From Promethearchaeota archaeon (GTDB lineage: Archaea; Asgardarchaeota; Lokiarchaeia; Sigyniarchaeales; SOKP01): DNA of 33,281 nucleotides. Within the stretch, counting starts at the first letter, position 1. Every line of letters starts with the position of its first letter. The stretch spans positions 1 to 33,281 of the forward strand of contig JBHLME010000045.1 of NCBI GenBank assembly GCA_048938445.1, given 5' to 3'. Of the stretch, positions 7,836 to 20,367 are shown one piece after another. The notes beneath the pieces were generated by a model that saw only the letters and a list, made by a program, of their open reading frames with translations, was not told where the DNA came from and searched no databases. A program made the position numbers and the translations under genes.

Positions 7836-9647
7836 ATGTCTGATACTAATCAAACAGAGCCTCAAGATGGATCAAATGAATCAGTCATTAAAGAGGAAGT
7901 TAGATTACAGTTCCATTGGTATATCTTTATTTTTATTGTAATTTATTATGGTTCTTGGATTTTTCCAATATTATTGTTCTTTTTATATGTAGGATTATAT
8001 TTTGGACCTTATTTTTTAGATGAGACTAACTTTTTTGCTCTTTTTTTAAATTTAAATTCCTTAATAAGTCTATTAACAATGCCATTGATAATTATAGGAT
8101 GTTATGTTCTCCATTTATTTTTGAATGGAGTGATTACACGTGTATTCTGGTCAATTACCGAAAAAATTTCACCTACTAAATCAGGTGTTATTCCTAGAAA
8201 TTTTACGAGCAAGACATTAAAATTTTATCATATAAGGAGTTTTTTTTTAAAATATCCCAAAAATACATTTATGAAAGGCCCATTTCCATGGTTTACAAAA
8301 TATTTGTATAATTTTGTTGGTACGAGTAAAATTGGCAAGGGAACTACTATTGAGGAATCTGTAGTTAGCGCTAAACATTATGAAATAGGTAGAAATTGTT
8401 ATTTTGGTGTAAATTCCTCAATTGCTAGTCATTTAGTAGAAGGTATCTTTGGAAATATAAATTATTTTAAAATTAAAATTGGGGATAATGTAACAGCAGC
8501 AGGAGCTAATCAAATAGGTCCTGGATCTGAAATACATGACAATTCTCATCTATTACCTTTAGCATCATGCACAAAACATAGCGTATTAAAAGGAAATAAC
8601 TACTACTATGGAATTCCTTTACGAAAAATATTTAAAAAAAAACTATTTGAAATCTTAAAATTTTCACCTGATCAATTTAATGAAGATATTGTAATAAAAA
8701 GAGAAAAAAGAATTAAGATTGAAGATGAAAATGAATTTAAAGAAAACGAGCAAAAAAGAGATAAAGCTCTTGATGAGCAGAATGATTACGATAAATCAGA
8801 ATTATTAATTGATTTTGCTACAAGCAGTGCAATTAGTAGGGTTAATTTGAAATTTCTGATTGTATATATCCCTATTTTATGGTTTAGCGGCTTTTTAGTT
8901 ACTATATATGTACATTTAATTACATGGGCACCATCGCAAATATATATCGTTTTAAGTTTAATGCCGATTTCACTAATCATCATGATATATTTATTCATCT
9001 TGGGAAATCTAATAATGTGTAAACTCTTACTTGTTTTAATTAATCTTATTCATAAACCTAAAGAGGGGGTATTTCGTGCAGAAATTGGAGATATGGATTA
9101 TGAATTTTGGATGTTAAGAACAGAATTAAAAAAAATTGTATTATGGTTAGTAAGAAATTCCCCCTTACCTTGGTTAGATGTCATTGCAATTAAATTGTTT
9201 GGAGTAAAGATAGATTTTTCAAGCCATCTAACTGATGCATGGTGCGATGTTGAATTCATAAAATTTGGTAGAAAAGTAATGGTTGGACAAGGGGCATTAG
9301 TAATGAGCTCAATGGTAGTGGGTAAATATTTAATAATTAAAAAGGTAATTTTCGATGATTATGCTTTAATTGGGGGTCATGCGACAATTGCTCCCGGAAC
9401 GATAATAGGAAAAGATTCCGTGATAGGTGCTATTTCAACAACTACTTATAATCAAATACTAGAACCAAGTTGGATTTATTTTGGTATTCCTTCAATAAAA
9501 TTGAAACCTAATAAATACGCGGAATCAAGAAGGGATGTTATAGTTAAAAAAGATGTTGATGATGAGAAGAAATTTAAAGTTATATATGAAATAAATGTCG
9601 AAGAAAGCAAGAAAACGAAAGTAAATTTCAAAGGAGATGATCTTTAA
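7836..9647 (+). CDS. Membrane protein with two tandem (transmembrane helices plus left-handed beta-helix acyltransferase-like) modules
   Basis: Two repeats of hydrophobic helices, a P-x-x-G-V...(Y/F)x(F/Y)(W/Y) motif and hexapeptide runs (KIGKGTTI, EIGRNCYFG, KIGDNVTA; KFGRKVMVG, IIGKDSVIG). Confidence 0.75.
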   Translation: MSDTNQTEPQDGSNESVIKEEVRLQFHWYIFIFIVIYYGSWIFPILLFFLYVGLYFGPYFLDETNFFALFLNLNSLISLLTMPLIIIGCYVLHLFLNGVITRVFWSITEKISPTKSGVIPRNFTSKTLKFYHIRSFFLKYPKNTFMKGPFPWFTKYLYNFVGTSKIGKGTTIEESVVSAKHYEIGRNCYFGVNSSIASHLVEGIFGNINYFKIKIGDNVTAAGANQIGPGSEIHDNSHLLPLASCTKHSVLKGNNYYYGIPLRKIFKKKLFEILKFSPDQFNEDIVIKREKRIKIEDENEFKENEQKRDKALDEQNDYDKSELLIDFATSSAISRVNLKFLIVYIPILWFSGFLVTIYVHLITWAPSQIYIVLSLMPISLIIMIYLFILGNLIMCKLLLVLINLIHKPKEGVFRAEIGDMDYEFWMLRTELKKIVLWLVRNSPLPWLDVIAIKLFGVKIDFSSHLTDAWCDVEFIKFGRKVMVGQGALVMSSMVVGKYLIIKKVIFDDYALIGGHATIAPGTIIGKDSVIGAISTTTYNQILEPSWIYFGIPSIKLKPNKYAESRRDVIVKKDVDDEKKFKVIYEINVEESKKTKVNFKGDDL

Positions 9648-9665: not shown

Positions 9666-10556
9666 ATGCGTATTGGGCCTTTTACTCCAACAATATTGCC
9701 TAAGAAACGATATCTATTACTTCATGTTTTCCTTATATGGATTACAATCATCCCGATTTTACTCGAATTTTGGTTTTTTTGGCAAGAAATGTTCCATTGG
9801 AAATATATATTTGAATGGAGAATCATTCATTTCTTTCTCTTCCTTCCTATTATATGTATTTTAATGTATGTCACGGCAGTTCTATTCTCAATAATTTTTA
9901 CGAAATTTATCTTGATCATTGTAAATTTTATGCATAAACCTCAAGAAGGTGTTTTTTTAAGAAATACTTCGAATAAACATTATAGATATTGGTGTCTAAG
10001 GAATTTGCTTAAAAAATGGTCAACCTGGCTAGCACATAAGTTCCCATTTCCTTTTATGGATAATATTTGTTTTAAAATATTTGGAGTAAACACTAAAATC
10101 TCTAACTCTCTCTTCGAAGGATGGGTTGATTGCGAATTTATAGATTTTGGTAAGGACGTGGTTGTTGGTCAAGGTGCAATAGTACAATCTGCTGTTATCA
10201 TTGGCGACTATTTAATAATAAGAAAAACAATCATAGAAGACAATGTTAGAATTGGATCTCATGCGTTTGTTATGCCTGGAACGCACATAGGTAAGAATTG
10301 TATATTAGCAGCAAACTCTTCAACGGTTATTGAACAGCAATTAGATGAAGGGTGGATCTATGTGGGTATTCCTGCTAAAAAATTCAAAAGAAATATATTT
10401 TTTGATAAAGGTTTGGAATCCTTGATTGGATATGTAGAAGATGTGGAATTATTAAGAGAAAAATATGAAAAAGTATATACTAAACTTAAATTAAGAGAAA
10501 GAATGGAAATTAAAAAGGAGAAAAAAGAAGAAGAAAAACATAGATGGGAAATTTAA
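9666..10556 (+). CDS. Membrane protein with one transmembrane plus LbH acyltransferase-like module; paralog of the upstream gene
   Basis: HKPQEGVF..YRYWCLR and WVDCEFIDFGKDVVVGQGA align by eye with HKPKEGVF..YEFWMLR and WCDVEFIKFGRKVMVGQGA of the upstream ORF. Confidence 0.78.
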   Translation: MRIGPFTPTILPKKRYLLLHVFLIWITIIPILLEFWFFWQEMFHWKYIFEWRIIHFFLFLPIICILMYVTAVLFSIIFTKFILIIVNFMHKPQEGVFLRNTSNKHYRYWCLRNLLKKWSTWLAHKFPFPFMDNICFKIFGVNTKISNSLFEGWVDCEFIDFGKDVVVGQGAIVQSAVIIGDYLIIRKTIIEDNVRIGSHAFVMPGTHIGKNCILAANSSTVIEQQLDEGWIYVGIPAKKFKRNIFFDKGLESLIGYVEDVELLREKYEKVYTKLKLRERMEIKKEKKEEEKHRWEI

Positions 10557-10589: not shown

Positions 10590-11300
10590 TTACATCTTTA
10601 AATAATACTTCGAAACATTTATAATATCTATCACTTCAGATTCTGGTACATCATACCAACTTTTATAAGCTTCAGCAACTGCGAATCGCCAAACATCTCT
10701 TGTATTGGGGCAAAAAATATAATCAACTTTGTCTTTAATTCTATTCACCGTGCTTATTGGTGCAGTAGGAACTGATATAAAAATTTGATTTGGATCATAA
10801 TTTTTAACCATTTTAATTGCTGCTAACATGGTAAAACCTGATGCTAATCCATCATCAATCATGAAAATGCTCTTACGATTTATATTTTTAAAATAATTCT
10901 TGTCTTTAATATCCTCTTTATTGTATAATTTCAAACGCTCTTTAATTTCATTTTTAGTTATCTCTATAGAATTATTTAATTGTTCATTGGTTAATTTTAG
11001 TTGATCATATAATGGTTGGTTAATTAATAATGTACCATCAGTGGTAATAGACCCAAACCCTGCTTCAGTATTCCATGGAATTTTAATTTTTCGCACGATT
11101 AAGAAATCATATTTTATCTTTAATATAGAACAAAATCCCTCAGCTACAGGTATCCCTCCGTTCGGAATTGCAAAACAAAAAAAATTTTTAGGATTTTTTA
11201 ATACAGAATCCCATAACTCTTGATTTTCTTTCTGGATGAGATTTGCAAGGATTTTACCCGCTTCTAATCTGGATTCATATTTTATAAATTTCATTGTCAT
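10590..11300 (-). CDS. Type I phosphoribosyltransferase family protein
   Basis: PRPP-binding motif IFMIDDGLASGFTM, plus AIPNGGIPVA and VRKIKIPWNTEAGFG. Confidence 0.9.
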   Translation of the reverse strand: MTMKFIKYESRLEAGKILANLIQKENQELWDSVLKNPKNFFCFAIPNGGIPVAEGFCSILKIKYDFLIVRKIKIPWNTEAGFGSITTDGTLLINQPLYDQLKLTNEQLNNSIEITKNEIKERLKLYNKEDIKDKNYFKNINRKSIFMIDDGLASGFTMLAAIKMVKNYDPNQIFISVPTAPISTVNRIKDKVDYIFCPNTRDVWRFAVAEAYKSWYDVPESEVIDIINVSKYYLKM

Positions 11301-11376: not shown

Positions 11377-13869
11377 TTATTTTAATGGACGAGAGTTAGC
11401 CAAGAAAATTGGCCCAATAAATTGAGAGTAAAGTTTACTATAACCCTCTTGATTGCTGACAATTGCGACTAAATCACTCTCTTTCTGTGTATATGGCGCC
11501 AGAATTACTTCTTCAGCATCTCGAGTTACAGCATAAAATTCTCCAGAAGAAGTTAATTGACGGAATTGTATGTTTCCTAAAACTTTCATTTTATTTATGA
11601 TATCTCCGTATTGGTTTAAATCAAAATGAGAAGTTAACATGAACCTTACTGCTTTCTTCTGAAACGCATATTGGGAGATTGTTTGAAGGATATCAGGTTC
11701 TACCACGGGAGTCACTACAATAATAGATGATTTAACTCGATATATAGCATCCTTTATTACCCCTAAAAGTGCATCTCTTCCTACAACTGGCCATGTAGTC
11801 ACCTCTGCAATTTCAGGTATATTACTAGAAGCTTGATGAATGTCATTTAGTTTGCTTTCATTATTTTCTGCTAATTCATTAGCATCATCAATAGAATTCA
11901 TGAATTGTAAAGTGAAATCAGCTATTGCATCCTTTACATTCTGTATCGTATCCTTGGTTGTATTATCTAGACTTTTCTGTAAATTCAATGCATTATTTTG
12001 ATATTTAGTCTTGTGATCTTCAAGCATATTGCTCAAATTGTCGTTCATTTGAGCGGCCTCATTATCCCAAAACTTGATTTCTGCATTTATTTTCTCTGAT
12101 GTGATTTTTTTAGATTTATCAAAATCAGCTCGGATTTTAGCTTGTCGGTCATTAATAAGTTTTTCATGTTTTGCTTTATATTCATTGAGTTTATTGATTT
12201 GATTTGTTATTTCTGTTGTAATATTATTTTTTGCTTCGTTAAATTTCTGATCTACTTCTTTTACCCAGTTTGTATTTTTATTCTTGATATCATTATCAAA
12301 ATCCGTGTAATGACTTAAAGAATCATTTTTATGAGTATTAATTGCTCCTTCATATTGAGAATGGTGAGTTTTTAATGAATTTTCTAAAGAATCCTTTAAT
12401 TTTAAACTCGTATCAGAGCAGTCTTTTACTCCACTTTGAAGAGTATTATCAATTTCAGTTGACATGTCTGTTGCTAAACTAGCTAATTGAGCATCAAGAG
12501 TTTCTTGTGCTTTTTTATTTAAATCACTTGTTTCCGTAGCAAGACTATCATTTTCTTTTGTCATGACACCAGTTACATCTGATTTAATCGCTTCAGTAGT
12601 TTCTTTTGTATTTTGCACGTAATCCTCCGTGATAGTGTTAAAATTTGGTCTTAACGATTCGGTTATTTGAATTACATCTCTAATCGTAATTTCATGTCTT
12701 GCTTTATATTTCTTCTTTTTACCAGCCCAGAAAAATCCTTTTTTAGCCATATCTTCTGAAAAATCAGAAAATCTATTCGCTTGTTCAATCAAGTTATTTA
12801 CTAATGTTTTTGAATTTTCTCTAAACGTATTGCATTGCTCTATTAAAGTTCTATGTCTCTCATCTACAAGGGATTTTAGATCAATTTGAAGAGTATCAGT
12901 AGTGCCCTTTACATGAGTTTTATGTTCTGCTAATAATCTTGAGATTTTATCTTTTAAATCTTCAACGACTTTATTCATCCGTTCTAAATATTTTTCTAAT
13001 ATTTGTTCCATTCTTGGTTTGAGGTCATTTGCTATGTCTTTATGTCTCTCTACATGTTCATCTAGATCCTTTTTTAGTTCACTATCTAAATCACTTACAC
13101 GATTACCAAAATCGGACAAAAGATCGCTGATTAATTTTTCTAAATTTGATTTCCTGTTATTTATTGAAGTTTCATTTTCAGACACAAATGATTGAGAGAT
13201 AGACTTAAGATTTGCATTTAATCCATCATGAATAGTATGAGTATTTGCTTCTAAAGTCTTTGATTGACTATTTTGATCATCCTTTATCCCTGTTAACTCA
13301 TTGTCTAATTGTTCTATATCATTTTTTAATTCTGCAAAATCTTTTTCAATATTAGCATGAAGATCAGATTCAAGTGTTTTATTTGTGTCTGTAAATCTGG
13401 TCGTAGCACTATCAATTCGGTTCTTTTTATTTTCATTTTTAGAATCTGAATCTTGAAAAAAATCATTAATTTGATTTTTAACAGCAGTATCAACTTCAGT
13501 TAAACTTTTATTTTGTATCGATTCAAGCTTTTCAAATCTACTAGATTGATCTGCTAAAATAGCATCCTTTATCTTGCTAATTTCTTCCCTAAATAATTCA
13601 GATTCTTTAGTAAATAATCCAAAATAAGGTTCAAGTGGAATATATCTAGGAACCATTCCCTCTACTTTTTTAAGGAAACCCTTTTCAACTAAATTCTCCG
13701 TGATTTCTTCGACTTTCGCATATTCATATTCGTAGATTTCTTCTAATGTCATGAAAACTTCGCTAATAGTAGCTCTAGGCACTTTTAAATAAATTAAATA
13801 CACGTTAATATCATCTTCTGTAAAACCATAGCGAGTAAATATTTCCTTGGTAAATTCTTTGAGACTCAA
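11377..13869 (-). CDS. TrmB-like protein: N-terminal wHTH, very long coiled coil, C-terminal TrmB effector (PLD-like) domain
   Basis: N-terminal YGFTEDDINVYL...LVEKGFL...PRYIPLEP; about 600 aa of Pro-poor helical heptad-rich sequence; C-terminal WPVVGRDAL...KSSIIVVTP...TRDAEEVILAP. TTG start. Confidence 0.7.
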   Translation of the reverse strand: MSLKEFTKEIFTRYGFTEDDINVYLIYLKVPRATISEVFMTLEEIYEYEYAKVEEITENLVEKGFLKKVEGMVPRYIPLEPYFGLFTKESELFREEISKIKDAILADQSSRFEKLESIQNKSLTEVDTAVKNQINDFFQDSDSKNENKKNRIDSATTRFTDTNKTLESDLHANIEKDFAELKNDIEQLDNELTGIKDDQNSQSKTLEANTHTIHDGLNANLKSISQSFVSENETSINNRKSNLEKLISDLLSDFGNRVSDLDSELKKDLDEHVERHKDIANDLKPRMEQILEKYLERMNKVVEDLKDKISRLLAEHKTHVKGTTDTLQIDLKSLVDERHRTLIEQCNTFRENSKTLVNNLIEQANRFSDFSEDMAKKGFFWAGKKKKYKARHEITIRDVIQITESLRPNFNTITEDYVQNTKETTEAIKSDVTGVMTKENDSLATETSDLNKKAQETLDAQLASLATDMSTEIDNTLQSGVKDCSDTSLKLKDSLENSLKTHHSQYEGAINTHKNDSLSHYTDFDNDIKNKNTNWVKEVDQKFNEAKNNITTEITNQINKLNEYKAKHEKLINDRQAKIRADFDKSKKITSEKINAEIKFWDNEAAQMNDNLSNMLEDHKTKYQNNALNLQKSLDNTTKDTIQNVKDAIADFTLQFMNSIDDANELAENNESKLNDIHQASSNIPEIAEVTTWPVVGRDALLGVIKDAIYRVKSSIIVVTPVVEPDILQTISQYAFQKKAVRFMLTSHFDLNQYGDIINKMKVLGNIQFRQLTSSGEFYAVTRDAEEVILAPYTQKESDLVAIVSNQEGYSKLYSQFIGPIFLANSRPLK

Positions 13870-14140
13870 TTTTTATCACATTATTGGTAGTTATAATTCT
13901 AATTCTATTTTATTAGAAATTTAGATTAAAAATATAATGGTTATCATATTTAATAATATTTTCTAATGTATTAGGAATAAAAAATTTATGCCCTTTATTT
14001 ATATATATTCTAATTTTATTGATATTCTTACCATTTTATAATAGAATTATGATGATCATCAAATGGGAAAGTTTATTCCTCAATTCTTTTTAAAGCGGAT
14101 GTTTTTATTATACTTAAAACCGATTTAAAATTGAAATACA

Positions 14141-14827
14141 ATGAAAAAAGTAAATAAAATAGTGTTAGGTGCCCTATTATTAACAACACTCTTCTCAATT
14201 ATCAGTTTTAGCAATGCTTCTGCAGCAGATATTCCAGTCATTGCTTCTGACAATGTACCATTTGAAGCACAAGTACAAGCACATGTAAGAACGACATATC
14301 GTTTTCAAAATCAGACACGATTGACGATTAATAGCTCTGTAGATTGTGATATGATTATGATTTGTGAAGCATCGAAAATAGGAGAAAAATATTTTGAAAT
14401 TCAGATTGTAGATGCTCCACACGATTTGCAAATGAACATGACATGTACTGAAGAACAAGCAGAATTGGGATTACTCTTAGGTACTAGACATACTGCAAGA
14501 AATAGAAATAGATATGTTTATCAAGAGGCTTTCTGTGTAGCTTTAAAATGCAATGCAACCTCTATACAGGCTAGACTAATGATATTAGCAACTGCACAAA
14601 ATGGTGGTGGAACATGGGCGTACTATGACGAAGCAAATGGAGAATGGGTCTCTGTCCCAACTACGATTGAAAATGGATATTTAGTTGCAACAACCAATCA
14701 TTTTTCTACTTGGACAGTTTTAATCCCTGAAGTGGATATACTTCCCTATATCATTGTTGGTGTCATTATTGGAATAATTGCTGCAATATCTGTTGTTGGA
14801 ATAGTGATTTACAAAAAAAAGAGATAA
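14141..14827 (+). CDS. Secreted beta-rich protein with C-terminal membrane anchor
   Basis: Signal peptide ending ASA; WAYYDEANGEW...TNHFSTW surface-protein-like motif; C-terminal TM helix followed by KKKR. Confidence 0.75.
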   Translation: MKKVNKIVLGALLLTTLFSIISFSNASAADIPVIASDNVPFEAQVQAHVRTTYRFQNQTRLTINSSVDCDMIMICEASKIGEKYFEIQIVDAPHDLQMNMTCTEEQAELGLLLGTRHTARNRNRYVYQEAFCVALKCNATSIQARLMILATAQNGGGTWAYYDEANGEWVSVPTTIENGYLVATTNHFSTWTVLIPEVDILPYIIVGVIIGIIAAISVVGIVIYKKKR

Positions 14828-14905: not shown

Positions 14906-16156
14906 ATGAGAAATAAGAAGTTAAAAGTATTCAGTATTCTATTATTCTTTTTTATTAGTTTTCAATTATCCTTTTTTTTTATAGCATATAATGTAAGAGG
15001 TATAGATGTTCCTGGTTTTAAATATCAAGCTAGGATTAATGCTAACCAAACTATCGCTTATCATTTCAACAATAACATTGAGTTTGAAATTTCTACAAAT
15101 GTAATATTAAATAATTTAAGCATTGAGTATGAAAATCAAATCCAAAACCGTCAAATTTCTCTAACTATAATGAATAATAAATCTATATCTTTAAATGTTA
15201 CATCCAAGAAAGAAATAAATAATTTTGCACCATCAAAAATTCCTAAAGAACCCATGATTGGTGGTTTTCAATTAAGAAATAATTATGGTTGTATTTATAG
15301 TTTAAAGGCAAATCAAACAATTCAAAATATAACTATTCGTTATAGAAAAATTATTCAATTTGGACTCAATCTTCAATTAAATTATTCTTTTGCTTTATTT
15401 AAATCAACCCAAGACTCTTGGGAAATAGTTAAAACTATTGAAAAAGTAAACCAGTCAAGTTCTGAACGATATTTAGAAATTACATTATTAAACCTTGAAG
15501 GAAATGAAGAATACTTTTTTACACTTTATGAAGTAAACGAATACCCATATGATTGGACTGGTTTAATCATTACTATTATTATTCTTGTCTTAGTTGGAGT
15601 TATATCACTTGTAATTGTTATTTCTAAGCAAGATTTTATCAACTACATTAAAACTCGTAACATTCTAATTGATAAGGGTGCTCATCGATTATCTCTAGAT
15701 GATGTTTTGGAAAATGAGAATCGTAATAAAATTATTGATATCATCCTTGATGAGCCTGGTATTCATTTTAATGAATTACTCAGAAAAACAGATTTAGCCG
15801 CCGGAAATTTAGTATGGCATTTAGAAATTTTAAGTAAATATAAAATTATCGGTAAAAAAGACATAGGTAGATACGTTGCTTATTTTCCTTATTATCCAAA
15901 AAATCCAATATCAAATTTAGATTTAAAACTTCAAAAGAGTAAATTAACATTACAAATTTTAGAAATGATTGAAGAAAAACCAGGTATTTGGAATAGTATT
16001 ATCAAGAAAAAAATGAACGTTGATCACAAAACAATTTATTATCATACATCTAAATTGATTGAATTGAATTTAATTATCGTAAAAAAAGATGGAAGGAAGA
16101 AGAAATTTTATCCAAATCTGGAATCTGAATATTATAGTAATAAAATTCTTCAATAG
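14906..16156 (+). CDS. Membrane-anchored transcriptional regulator: ectodomain, TM helix, tandem winged-HTH domains
   Basis: N-terminal signal/TM; TM LIITIIILVLVGVISLVIVI; wHTH1 NRNKIIDII..EPGIHFNELLRK..LAAGNLVWHLEIL; wHTH2 ILEMIEEKPGI...HKTIYYH..KL. Confidence 0.85.
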   Translation: MRNKKLKVFSILLFFFISFQLSFFFIAYNVRGIDVPGFKYQARINANQTIAYHFNNNIEFEISTNVILNNLSIEYENQIQNRQISLTIMNNKSISLNVTSKKEINNFAPSKIPKEPMIGGFQLRNNYGCIYSLKANQTIQNITIRYRKIIQFGLNLQLNYSFALFKSTQDSWEIVKTIEKVNQSSSERYLEITLLNLEGNEEYFFTLYEVNEYPYDWTGLIITIIILVLVGVISLVIVISKQDFINYIKTRNILIDKGAHRLSLDDVLENENRNKIIDIILDEPGIHFNELLRKTDLAAGNLVWHLEILSKYKIIGKKDIGRYVAYFPYYPKNPISNLDLKLQKSKLTLQILEMIEEKPGIWNSIIKKKMNVDHKTIYYHTSKLIELNLIIVKKDGRKKKFYPNLESEYYSNKILQ

Positions 16157-16320: not shown

Positions 16321-18173
16321 ATGGAAACACTCAGAAAAGATATTAGGGAAAAATTCGAGGAACTGTTTGAAAATATTTTATATTATGTTCTTGTCTACAA
16401 TTTTGAAGGAATGATTATTGATGTAAATCAATTAATGTTAAATAGCTTTGGTTATAAAACTGAGGATGTATTGAATAAACCCTTTAAAGAATTTATAAAA
16501 AAGGAAAATTTACCTCAAGCTATAAATGCAATTAAAGATTTAAGAAAAAAAGGAAGGATTTCTAAACCAAGTGTTTATCAGATAAAGCATGCTAACGGTT
16601 CTTTTAAATTTGTAGAGATCTATGGGATCCCATTTAAGAAAAACGGAAAGATTCAAGCGGTCATTGCATTAGGTCATGATATTACTGATAAAAAAATAGC
16701 TGAACAAAGATTAAAAGAATCAGAATTGAGATTTCGCACTGCTATTGAAAGTTTACCTTTTGATTTCTTTGCTCTTGATAAAAATGAAGAATATGTAATG
16801 CAAAATTCGATATGTAAAAAAAATTGGGGTGATATAATCGGAAAAAAGCCCGAAGATATAGTATCTGATGAAAAAATTTTACAAATATGGAAGAATAATA
16901 ATGAAAGAGCATTATCGGGAAATTTAATAGAGGGAGAAGTAAGTTTTGTAATGAAAAATGAGGAACGCTTCTTTTATAATATTATATCCCCCATAAAAAA
17001 CGAAAATGATATACAAGGAATTTTAGGTGTAAATATTGATATTACAGAGAAGAAAAGAGCTGAGCAAAAAATAAAAGAATCTGAAAAAAAATATAGGGAT
17101 TTGTTTGATAGCTCTCCATATTCCATTGTATTAATCGATTTAGATGGTATTATTGTTGATGTAAATGAAACATCTAGAACCATACTCGGCTATGAAAGAG
17201 ATGAAGTAATCGGAACGAATTTTCTTGAGTTACCTCTATATGAACCTCACGCAATTCCAATGCTTAAAGAACGGTTAAAAATGTATGCAAGTGGAAAAAA
17301 AATGAGACCTATTACACTTTCGTTAAAAAAAAAGATGGTAATGCATTTTGGGTGAATCCAAATGTTTCATTAATAGAAATCGATGGAAAAAAACATATTC
17401 AAATTATATATGAGGATGTAACTGCTAGGATCGAAACAGAAAAAAAATTAAGAAAATCAGAGAAAAAATATAGAACAGCATATAATCGAGAAAATTTTTA
17501 TAAAGATGTATTCGCTCATGATACACGTAATATCTTACAAGGAATGTTATCCTCATTGGAATTATGTAAAATAAGTATAAAGAAAAAAAAAGATACCAAG
17601 ATTGTCGAGGAATTACTCGATGAATGTAAACGACAAGTATTAAGGGGTTCCAATTTAGTAAAGAATGTAAAAAAATTTTCTGAACTTGAAAAATCTGAAC
17701 GACATTTAATGAAGATTGATCTTGAAAAGTATTTAAATGAAGCAATTAAGATTACTCAAGCATATTCTAATGAGAAAAAAATTGATATTTCAGTAGAGTC
17801 TGAATCCAATCACCAAGTTAAAGCGGATGAGTTATTGATCGATGTATTTGAAAATATATTATTAAACGCAATTCACCATAATCAAAATAATCATGTTGAA
17901 ATTATGATTAGAGTTAGTAACATTGAAGAAAATGAAAAAAAAATGCTTCAAATTGAATTTATCGATAATGGCCCTGGAATTCCTGATTTTAAAAAAGAAT
18001 TAATTTTTAAGAGAAGTAATAAAAAAATAAATAGCGTGAGTGGAACGGGTTTAGGTCTCTATCTTGTTTATTCTATAATTCAACAATATGATGCGAAAAT
18101 TAGAGTAGAAGATAAAATTCCAGATGATCATACAAAAGGGAGTAAATTCATTTTAACTTTTCCTTATTGCTAA
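16321..18173 (+). CDS. Multi-PAS sensor histidine kinase, split by a frameshift at 17325-17334 (ORFs 16321..17355 and 17352..18173)
   Basis: Three PAS/PAC repeats (HDITDKK, IDITEKK, EDVTAR). H-box FAHDTRNILQG, N-box FENILLNA, G1 DNGPGI, G2 GTGLGL. One extra A restores LKKKDGNAFWVN, a typical PAC sequence. Confidence 0.9.
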
Positions 18174-18936: not shown

Positions 18937-20367
18937 TTAAAAGCTTAATACAACAATTGGATTTCCACTTTGAGACCATAATTTTGTTCCAAGAATATTT
19001 ATCCTCTGAGCATAAATATCATAATCTTTACTATTTCTTTTATCTTTCCAGGCAATAATCAGACCACTTGATTCATCAAATATTAATTGAGAATCATTTT
19101 GATAATCATCTCCATCACATAACAATATCCCATTTGAATTCCAAGCGAGTTCTCTGTCAGGTTTAATTCTCTGACCATAAATATCCGTCGAATTACTAAC
19201 CCCAATTCTATTTTCTGACCAAACAATAAATGCACCACCATCAGTAGTGTTAATAATTTCTGGGGGTCCTAAACCATTGCTTGTATCACATATAGCTTTT
19301 CCGGTGTTAGTCCATTGTATATCTCCATTTGAATTTATCCACTGAGCTTCAATGTCCCAATCATCATCACCTGATGTCCCTGCATCTTGCCAAGCTATGA
19401 AGGCACCTTCTTCCCCATCACTACAAATTTTTGGAACAGCATTATAAGAATCTACATAAGCTACCGTCTCTCCGTTTGAATCCCAAAGTAAATTTCCATT
19501 CAAATCAATTTTTTGAGCATAAAGAATATTAGAATCAAACCATACCGCAATAACACCCCCAGCTCCATCACTGCAAATTGAAATATGGTAAATACCACTC
19601 AAACTTAGTGTGACCATACCACTTTCCCATTGATTTTCTCCATCTGAATTTATCCTTCGAGCAGTAACTCTTCTATCATCCTCGCATATTATGAAGGCAC
19701 CCCCCAAACCATCGCTGCAAATTTCAGGATCAACTTCATCTGAACTTGAACTAAATATTGGAATTCCATTTATATTCCATCTTAAAAAGCCGTTTAGATC
19801 GATTCTCTGAGTGTATATATTCCATCCAGTTCCTTGGTAATCTCTATTACCTTCCCAGACTATGATGACTCCTCCATTTCCATCACTACACATTTCAATA
19901 TCACGTGGTCCAGGATCTGCCATACAAACAGGTATACCATTAGGTATCCATGCTATATTACCATTTGAATCAATCCGTTGAGCATAAATATCATAATACC
20001 CCGTTCTTTTATCTTCCCATGCAATGATCGCACCTCCTCTTCCATCACTGCATATTTTTGGCTCTTCTTGAGAGTTTCTTGCGTTACAAATGATAACACC
20101 ATTTAATATCCATTTTATATTCCCATTTGAGTCAATTTTTTGAGCATAAATATCACGTCCAGTAGAATCAAAATTTCTATAATCCATCCATGTTATTATA
20201 GCACCTCCCGCACCGTCACTACAAATTGCATGGTCTTTTTGATCATTAGGTGGATCATAATCAAGATATTCTAAAATATAAAAAATACCACTTAGGATCA
20301 AGATAGACATTAAAAAATTAACAGAAATAATAATAACGACTAAAAAAAATTTTTCCTTCTTTTTCAT
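18937..20367 (-). CDS. Membrane-anchored repeat protein, probable 8-bladed beta-propeller
   Basis: N-terminal TM, then eight ~55-60 aa repeats of ICSDGxGGAxIxWxD...DIYAQxIDxNGxxxW. Confidence 0.75.
   Translation of the reverse strand: MKKKEKFFLVVIIISVNFLMSILILSGIFYILEYLDYDPPNDQKDHAICSDGAGGAIITWMDYRNFDSTGRDIYAQKIDSNGNIKWILNGVIICNARNSQEEPKICSDGRGGAIIAWEDKRTGYYDIYAQRIDSNGNIAWIPNGIPVCMADPGPRDIEMCSDGNGGVIIVWEGNRDYQGTGWNIYTQRIDLNGFLRWNINGIPIFSSSSDEVDPEICSDGLGGAFIICEDDRRVTARRINSDGENQWESGMVTLSLSGIYHISICSDGAGGVIAVWFDSNILYAQKIDLNGNLLWDSNGETVAYVDSYNAVPKICSDGEEGAFIAWQDAGTSGDDDWDIEAQWINSNGDIQWTNTGKAICDTSNGLGPPEIINTTDGGAFIVWSENRIGVSNSTDIYGQRIKPDRELAWNSNGILLCDGDDYQNDSQLIFDESSGLIIAWKDKRNSKDYDIYAQRINILGTKLWSQSGNPIVVLSF

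Follow-up and report, generated by a model that had tools for sequence, protein, structure and literature searches.

Regulators of the TrmB family are the closest solved relatives of the protein described here. According to a review of this family (PMC4158304), its members dimerise via the helix after the winged helix-turn-helix (wHTH), which pairs in antiparallel fashion, and TrmB itself is a domain-swapped dimer with antiparallel coiled-coil helices. The same review places six of the seven sugar contacts of TrmB in the second effector subdomain, a beta-barrel, which is missing in TrmBL2. It also names Tyr50 of the recognition helix and, less so, Asp51 as important for DNA binding by P. furiosus TrmB; this Tyr is conserved in TrmBL1, TrmBL2, VNG1451C, and MalR (Y49-Y61), and MreA, a functional member of the family, lacks it. 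Here, we analyzed a window of 33,281 nucleotides (the whole stretch of DNA under study; contig JBHLME010000045.1, positions 1 to 33,281 of the forward strand) from the Promethearchaeota archaeon assembly GCA_048938445.1, in which a gene on the minus strand (11377..13869) encodes an 830-aa protein with a TrmB-type head and a very long helical rod, which may serve as a structural spacer and is hereafter called the rod protein.

The architecture of the rod protein is close to certain, while the function proposed for it is putative. The gene comprises 830 codons plus a stop codon and begins with TTG, a start backed by the orthologues, which carry Met and the same first residues (MSLKEF) at the equal position. 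Reading along the minus strand, the wHTH (aa 13-81, 13627..13833) was identified by a match to Pfam PF01978 (TrmB) of 28.7 bits against a cut-off of 25.6, rising to 33.1 bits in the genome scan. It is followed by the N-arm helix (aa 82-376, 12742..13626), delimited by the secondary structure (DSSP) of an AlphaFold2 model and by its hendecad periodicity, and then by the tip motif KKGFFWAGKKKKY (aa 376-388, 12706..12744), located by motif search, the AlphaFold2 model, and an alignment of relatives. The turn proper in the model occupies aa 377-384 (12718-12741). The C-arm helix (aa 385-682, 11824..12717) runs antiparallel to the N-arm, with residue positions adding up to about 760, according to the model, structural alignment, and covariation, and the C-terminal alpha/beta domain (aa 691-830, 11380..11799) closes the chain. 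An earlier note on this DNA had proposed a TrmB wHTH at about aa 1-80, an effector-like domain at about aa 690-830, and a conspicuous motif near the middle of the rod (about aa 375-388, nt ~12705-12745). All three were recovered, and since the rod spans residues 82-682, with its centre at 382, the motif lies at the rod midpoint.

The AlphaFold2 model was computed from a 60-sequence alignment, and the rod geometry was read via structural alignments of the model, not from its coordinates. With a mean predicted local distance difference test score (pLDDT) of 77.5 and a predicted template modelling score (pTM) of 0.36, as expected of a rod, the model consists of the wHTH, a helix of residues 82-376, an eight-residue loop (377-384), a helix of residues 385-682, and an alpha/beta domain (692-828). 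Over 307/309 residues (model 219-540), the rod matches the chemoreceptor hairpin 2ch7_A with Z 12.8 and an rmsd of 10.5 A, and over 196 residues (model 278-477) it matches the antifreeze protein 4ke2_A with Z 11.5 and an rmsd of 4.6 A. It also aligns with Rad50 7zr1_D (model 162-602) and cohesin 7ogt_B (model 80-677). Because these four hairpin-aligned ranges are all centred near residue 379, the model folds back at the motif. At 0.15 nm per residue, 295 residues give a rod length of about 44 nm. As a lead only, residues 9-829 of the ESM Atlas model of the protein align to TrmB regulators of 250-270 aa.

The two arms are matched in length across the family. Among the best 120 homologues, length classes of 751, 830-833, 874-875, and 918 aa were found, and the alignment showed that successive classes differ by equal indels in the N-arm and at the mirror position of the C-arm, amounting to 40, 22, and 22 residues, of which the 22-residue indels equal two hendecads. 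Measured between fixed anchors, the arms were 233/233, 273/273-274, 295/295-296, and 317/317 residues long in 92/121 homologues, namely those carrying all three anchors, as the other 29 failed one anchor pattern and were dropped. A wider search added length classes up to 1050-1052 aa. With looser anchors, matched arms, from 260/270 to 412/422 with an offset mostly of -8 to -10, were obtained in 137/157 proteins, in a measurement that sought the tip only within about 45 residues of the midpoint and thereby limits the apparent arm inequality. The rod is moreover under unusually strong constraint, with a mean column identity of 67% along 600 residues in 18 orthologues.

Covariation between the arms was scored by mutual information, corrected by the average product, in an alignment of 180 sequences (effective number 70), with gapped columns excluded because the gap-inclusive computation was swamped by gap-gap co-occurrence in the indel regions. 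Position sums (i+j) of 755-770 were found in 23 of the top 100 inter-arm pairs versus a background of 6.3%, and the antidiagonal pairs span the rod from 98/664 to 368/400. Paired indels and covariation fit an intramolecular hairpin and a two-chain rod alike. In the two-chain arrangement, no chain would fold back; instead, two chains would lie antiparallel over their full length, each N-arm along the C-arm of the other, forming a rod of 90 nm that is capped at either end by a mixed head and carries the motif in its centre, for which the domain-swapped TrmB dimer mentioned above offers a precedent. However, two findings favour the hairpin: the conserved residues G378 and G383 enclose the break at 377-384, and the monomer model folds back. 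The two-chain rod is in our judgement quite improbable. The predicted fold-back hairpin is thus well supported by model geometry, mirror-position indels, and antidiagonal covariation, in agreement with the antiparallel hairpin of the earlier note, in which both globular ends come together and the tip stands tens of nanometres off, a distance of about 44 nm by our estimate.

Hydrophobic residues recur with a period of 3.65-3.67 (11/3, hendecad) in both arms, with no power at 3.5. The periodicity power was 8.2 in the N-arm (shuffles 0.68±0.27) and 3.8 in the C-arm (shuffles 0.61±0.21), and 0/200 shuffles were as high in either case. Of the coiled coil of ~600 aa that the earlier note had described, the long helical rod therefore stands, but not a classical heptad repeat. 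The hendecad periodicity also accounts for a weak match to the Pfam family Apolipoprotein A1/A4/E (40.9 bits), which was seen in 17/20 distant relatives scanned as well. According to this match and the period of 11/3, the protein might be thought to act like an apolipoprotein or perilipin, its amphipathic helices opening to lie flat on a membrane or lipid body. We consider this far-fetched, since the match is far under the 90-bit cut-off, the paired indels and covariation show that the arms pair with each other, and the arms carry net charges of -16 and -17.

In the turn, three large aromatics stand in a row with glycines on either side, and four to five lysines come after them. Residues 373-392 have a net charge of +7, set in a protein of -32 overall, and the tip is the sole basic segment of the rod protein, with the most basic 15-aa windows (+7) lying within residues 375-391. 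On the Wimley-White interfacial scale, no six-residue window of the protein scores more favourably than GFFWAG, and on composition alone the optimum for interfacial partitioning and the peak of basic charge thus coincide at the tip. A run of three large hydrophobic or aromatic residues, along with five or more Lys/Arg, is retained in 176/180 relatives, so that the character of the tip is conserved, a check that the earlier note had named, and at least one Gly is present in the tip of 180/180. The four exceptions are orthologues of 41-53% identity, which possess a longer RGxAF/WKALFxGxHK stretch instead, reading as a short amphipathic segment from its sequence. In relatives of 15-25% identity, a Gly/Pro break with Phe and Lys often lies 4-20 residues from the estimated midpoint, as judged by a crude heuristic whose best window fell near the midpoint in 11/33 relatives.

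Structural alignment paired the C-terminal domain with the sugar-binding domain of TrmB, 2f5t_X (model 691-830 to chain 110-242), at Z 18.3 and an rmsd of 1.8 A over 131 residues, as well as with 3qph_A (Z 17.6) and TrmBL2 5bpd_A (Z 15.3), with Foldseek E-values of 5e-7 to 1e-5. No sequence similarity of this domain to PF11495 was found in the Pfam scan. Proteins of the phospholipase D (PLD) fold, such as Nuc, Zucchini, and FAM83, match it at Z 12-15; despite this PLD-like fold, the catalytic motif HxK(x)4D of PLD enzymes is absent from the whole protein (regex H.K....[DE]), and an enzymatic PLD role was rejected. The protein ends at residue 830, which is the end of the first effector subdomain (an eight-stranded sheet flanked by helices), so that the second subdomain is missing together with its six of seven sugar contacts. 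We therefore rejected a sugar sensor, as the earlier note had done when it argued against a sugar-sensing regulator. The PLD-like domain of the family was also found fused to TPR repeats, zinc ribbons, and HhH motifs (P0147, P0148, P0176, P0189) and standing alone in proteins of 130-230 aa, which suggests that it may be a portable binding module.

At the other end of the chain, the wHTH carries a net charge of -6, the lowest value among the genome's 14 PF01978 domains that exceed the cut-off, the rest of which range from -3 to +6. In 180 relatives of the rod protein, the wHTH has a median net charge of -4 and a range of -7 to 0. In a weak profile alignment to 3qph_A (E 0.47), Glu54-Glu55 stand opposite Y50-D51 of TrmB. 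A Tyr at this column was found in 0/13 orthologues, and the recognition helix is variable among these otherwise highly conserved proteins, while most paralogous regulators of the genome keep a recognition-helix start of the Arg-x-Tyr type. Three basic residues of the wHTH, R32, K67, and R75, do not vary across 18 orthologues. The head may bind DNA, but binding is not implied. One could imagine a chromatin protein without any membrane contact, whose head binds DNA non-specifically and whose Lys-rich tip holds a second DNA or an RNA, so that the rod bridges or spaces DNA. The kinship to TrmB and TrmBL2, the tip charge of +7, and the three invariant basic residues speak for such a bridge; however, the acidic wHTH, the Glu in place of the recognition Tyr, and the variable recognition helix stand against it, and three consecutive aromatics would be atypical for binding duplex DNA. 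On balance, we regard DNA bridging as unlikely, though an alternative of some weight.

The geometry of the rod resembles the arms of Rad50 and cohesin, and the rod protein might accordingly associate tip-to-tip or side-by-side, as at the Rad50 hook or the SMC hinge, to form two-headed struts of ~90 nm or a lattice. Association would shield the hydrophobic tip, and dimerisation through an antiparallel helix is a habit of the TrmB family, as noted above. However, the rod protein has no CxxC hook, its only Cys being at 346 and 484, and tips of +7 would be expected to repel each other unless an anionic partner lay between them; self-assembly of this kind is decidedly doubtful. A two-copy complex prediction for residues 230-530 scored 0.30 versus a mark of 0.42, in a run without controls, and weighs neither way. 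An SMC-like ATPase, which the earlier note had already excluded for want of Walker motifs, was rejected, as a regex over the whole sequence found no Walker A (GxxxxGK[ST]), neither Pfam nor NCBIfam gave a match to SMC or Rad50 families, and the hook is lacking. Similarly, Pfam gave no match to MCPsignal, the NCBIfam scan returned only sub-threshold coiled-coil noise (e.g., ZorA at 16.7 bits versus a cut-off of 250), and PDB sequence searches, using either the complete protein or its first 100 aa as the query, reached E 0.1 at best.

The reading that we favour, tentatively and short of an even chance, is that the rod protein is a structural spacer of fixed length whose tip adsorbs to an anionic surface, most likely a membrane, and whose TrmBL2-derived head holds chromatin or a protein partner. 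The protein would be a non-enzymatic rod, in which both chain ends together build a TrmBL2-type head from the wHTH and the PLD-like first effector subdomain. In place of the short antiparallel pairing helix of TrmB, there are two hendecad helices, each about 295 residues long, that fold back into the rod of about 44 nm. The analysis shows the identities of the domains, the topology of the fold-back, the matching of the arm lengths, and the conservation and charge pattern of the tip, and the rest of the reading is putative. The tip might anchor the rod on an anionic surface, which would most likely be the membrane on its cytoplasmic side, and keep the head at a fixed, evolutionarily quantised distance, where it might bind its partner, be it chromatin/DNA or a protein, in whatever oligomeric state the rod may adopt. 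The DNA-to-membrane tether of the earlier note is one version of this structural spacer and is partly supported: the hairpin and the conserved tip agree with it, whereas the acidic wHTH and the Glu replacing the recognition Tyr make its DNA end less likely.

Several observations weigh against this proposal. The known MinD-type membrane-targeting sequences are terminal amphipathic helices, not internal turns, and a tip rich in Lys and aromatics could just as well bind to nucleic acid or in the pocket of a protein. Loop 377-384 has a pLDDT below 50, and the shape of the tip is therefore not defined by the model. The structural matches of the rod, at Z 10-13, are in a range common for long helices and speak of geometry, not kinship. 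Covarying pairs do not count as independent observations, and 7 pairs form a further small, unexplained cluster at i+j 978-997. Finally, the divergent pair of membrane-protein genes next to the rod gene, described below, is kept in 0/6 more distant orthologue loci, where only one weak match, confined to the HTH, was seen.

A close relative of the rod protein is encoded in 114 species genomes, all labelled as Asgard metagenome-assembled genomes (MAGs). A search of 1.84 billion representatives returned 213 proteins at E <= 0.001, and at E <= 1e-10 the family was matched in 221/400 Asgard genomes searched, in 122/134 genomes of the source genome's own family, and in 61/90 genomes with a completeness of 90% or more and a contamination of 5% or less. 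Distant relatives of 750-1800 aa, named for Jordarchaeales, Helarchaeota, and Hodarchaeota, share the plan of wHTH, hendecad region, and C-terminal domain. The AlphaFold2 model of one of them, P0163 from Jordarchaeales (17% identity, mean pLDDT 67), shows helices 77-341 and 351-604 with a central loop 342-350, and helix breaks at the mirror positions 182-186 and 502-505.

The source genome itself holds two shorter relatives, on contigs C248 (about 12104-13519, minus strand) and C117 (about 33955-34281, minus strand), in frames of 498 and 797 aa. Both combine a wHTH with a C-terminal domain of the type seen in the rod protein, and their helical region measures about 270-400 aa; the one on C117 additionally possesses an N-terminal extension and a Pro/Ala-rich tail. 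On the complete MAG chromosome CP070831.1, the family gene appears as two partial matches (query 331-830 and 1-558) about 0.6 Mb apart with an overlap of ~230 residues, which could be a copy that was rearranged, or duplicated and truncated, or else an assembly artefact. In P. syntrophicum, a 'TrmB family transcriptional regulator', DSAG12_03376, ranks 10/732 among detected proteins by |log P|, with a normalized spectral abundance factor (NSAF) of 0.15, according to a glycoproteomics paper (PMC11284389, Table 1). Its high score and low length-normalised abundance fit a long protein, and it is a candidate orthologue of the rod protein; if it is indeed orthologous, its rank would argue that the rod protein is structural and abundant. 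Among the 37 proteins retrieved with the 962-aa relative P0125, none bore the name of P. syntrophicum.

The rod gene stands alone, with a divergent pair of membrane-protein genes upstream. The first (14141..14827, plus strand) encodes a 228-aa protein with a signal peptide and a C-terminal membrane anchor, and the second (14906..16156, plus strand) a 416-aa membrane protein with a cytoplasmic HTH (PF24266); both are conserved within the family only and are barely alike (E 0.025). The pair is kept in 55/60 loci with at least 2.5 kb of upstream sequence. A conventional transcription regulator of this divergent operon, with the rod serving merely for oligomerisation, would be consistent with that synteny and with a TrmB wHTH over the Pfam cut-off, yet several findings oppose it: the neighbours are not kept at the six more distant loci, the effector pocket subdomain and the DNA-reading Tyr are missing, and strict length matching and high rod identity would be hard to explain for an oligomerisation helix. 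Moreover, in the AT-rich intergenic region of this single locus (13860-14150), no operator stood out among many weak inverted repeats. We strongly doubt this reading. A convergent and unrelated Fae-Hps gene is similarly syntenic (44/56 loci; 4/6 distant loci), and since the divergent pair is limited to the family and Fae-Hps is equally syntenic, the context gives no functional support; we read the conservation of neighbours as inherited gene order, not as a functional link. No RNA holder was listed for the rod gene.

Other genes of the window were recorded along the way. Here, Fae-Hps is separated from the rod gene by two hexapeptide-repeat membrane proteins (7836-9647 and 9666-10556, plus strand) and a phosphoribosyltransferase (10590-11300, minus strand); in many related genomes it is the next gene downstream of the rod gene, and the hexapeptide genes were matched in 0/80 related loci. 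A PAS-domain open reading frame (ORF; 16321-17355, plus strand) overlaps a HisKA/HATPase ORF (17352-18173, plus strand) by 4 nt, which represents either a histidine kinase split in two frames or a translationally coupled pair. Further on, a 476-aa ORF (18937-20367, minus strand) combines a membrane anchor at its N-terminus with some eight tandem repeats, each roughly 45-50 aa long (CSDGxGGAIIxW...DIYAQRIxxNG), without a Pfam match at E <= 0.001, and sits in the GC maximum of the window (0.366) with strong negative GC skew.

While the head domains are known from the TrmB/TrmBL2 family, the combination of rod and tip looks undescribed: the literature search found no paper on a 600-residue, length-matched hendecad fold-back rod with a greasy basic tip, and the main text of an Asgard chromatin preprint mentions TrmBL only in a figure legend. 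In a more speculative and improbable extension of the structural-spacer reading, Asgard archaea might possess a family of abundant, ATPase-free molecular rulers, with rods in classes from about 38 to more than 60 nm. A degenerate TrmBL2-type head, a hendecad rod growing in steps of two hendecads per arm, and a tip resting on the inner membrane face would together hold chromatin or another structure at a set distance. If true, the family would be a prokaryotic functional forerunner of a lamina-like scaffold between nucleoid and membrane. Even if the protein were merely an odd regulator, it would still provide a clean natural example of coiled-coil length quantisation, and the function of the family is directly testable in cultured Asgard species.

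Compared with known systems, the rod protein shares the 11-residue amphipathic periodicity of Apolipoprotein A1/A4/E (PF01442), but it differs in that the match is below the family cut-off and its arms pair mutually. In bacterial DNA-to-membrane tethers, such as RacA and Noc, a DNA-binding module is joined to a membrane- or pole-binding element. The rod protein would be like them in proposed logic only, as there is no homology, its DNA-reading residues are degenerate, and both bindings are putative. Closer in shape is the cytoplasmic hairpin of the chemoreceptors (MCP), which is likewise a long helical hairpin, aligning over nearly the entire length of 2ch7, and symmetric two-arm indels creating length classes are a known property of the MCP family; the rod protein nevertheless has no sequence relation to it and differs in its period of 11/3, its head, and its tip. 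With SMC and Rad50 it has in common that the chain ends meet in one head, that the antiparallel helical arms are about 45-50 nm long, and that the apex carries a conserved element. Unlike them, it lacks an ABC ATPase head with its Walker A, and has an 8-residue loop in place of a hinge or CxxC hook and hendecads in place of heptads.

The closest likeness is to TrmBL2, a chromatin protein of Thermococcales (PDB 5bpd, 5bpi, 5box, 5bqt), and TrmB (3qph, 2f5t). All of them possess a PF01978 wHTH, an antiparallel helix next to it, and the same C-terminal alpha/beta fold, and the rod protein shares with TrmBL2 the lack of the sugar-contacting subdomain described in PMC4158304. In contrast to TrmB, TrmBL1, TrmBL2, VNG1451C, and MalR, for which the same review gives a recognition Tyr, the rod protein has a Glu in an acidic wHTH. 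The helix after its wHTH, starting at residue 82, is of the TrmB antiparallel type but runs for ~295 residues and has the C-arm as its partner, and between the two parts of its head the rod protein carries a fold-back hendecad rod of ~600 residues that ends in an aromatic and basic tip.

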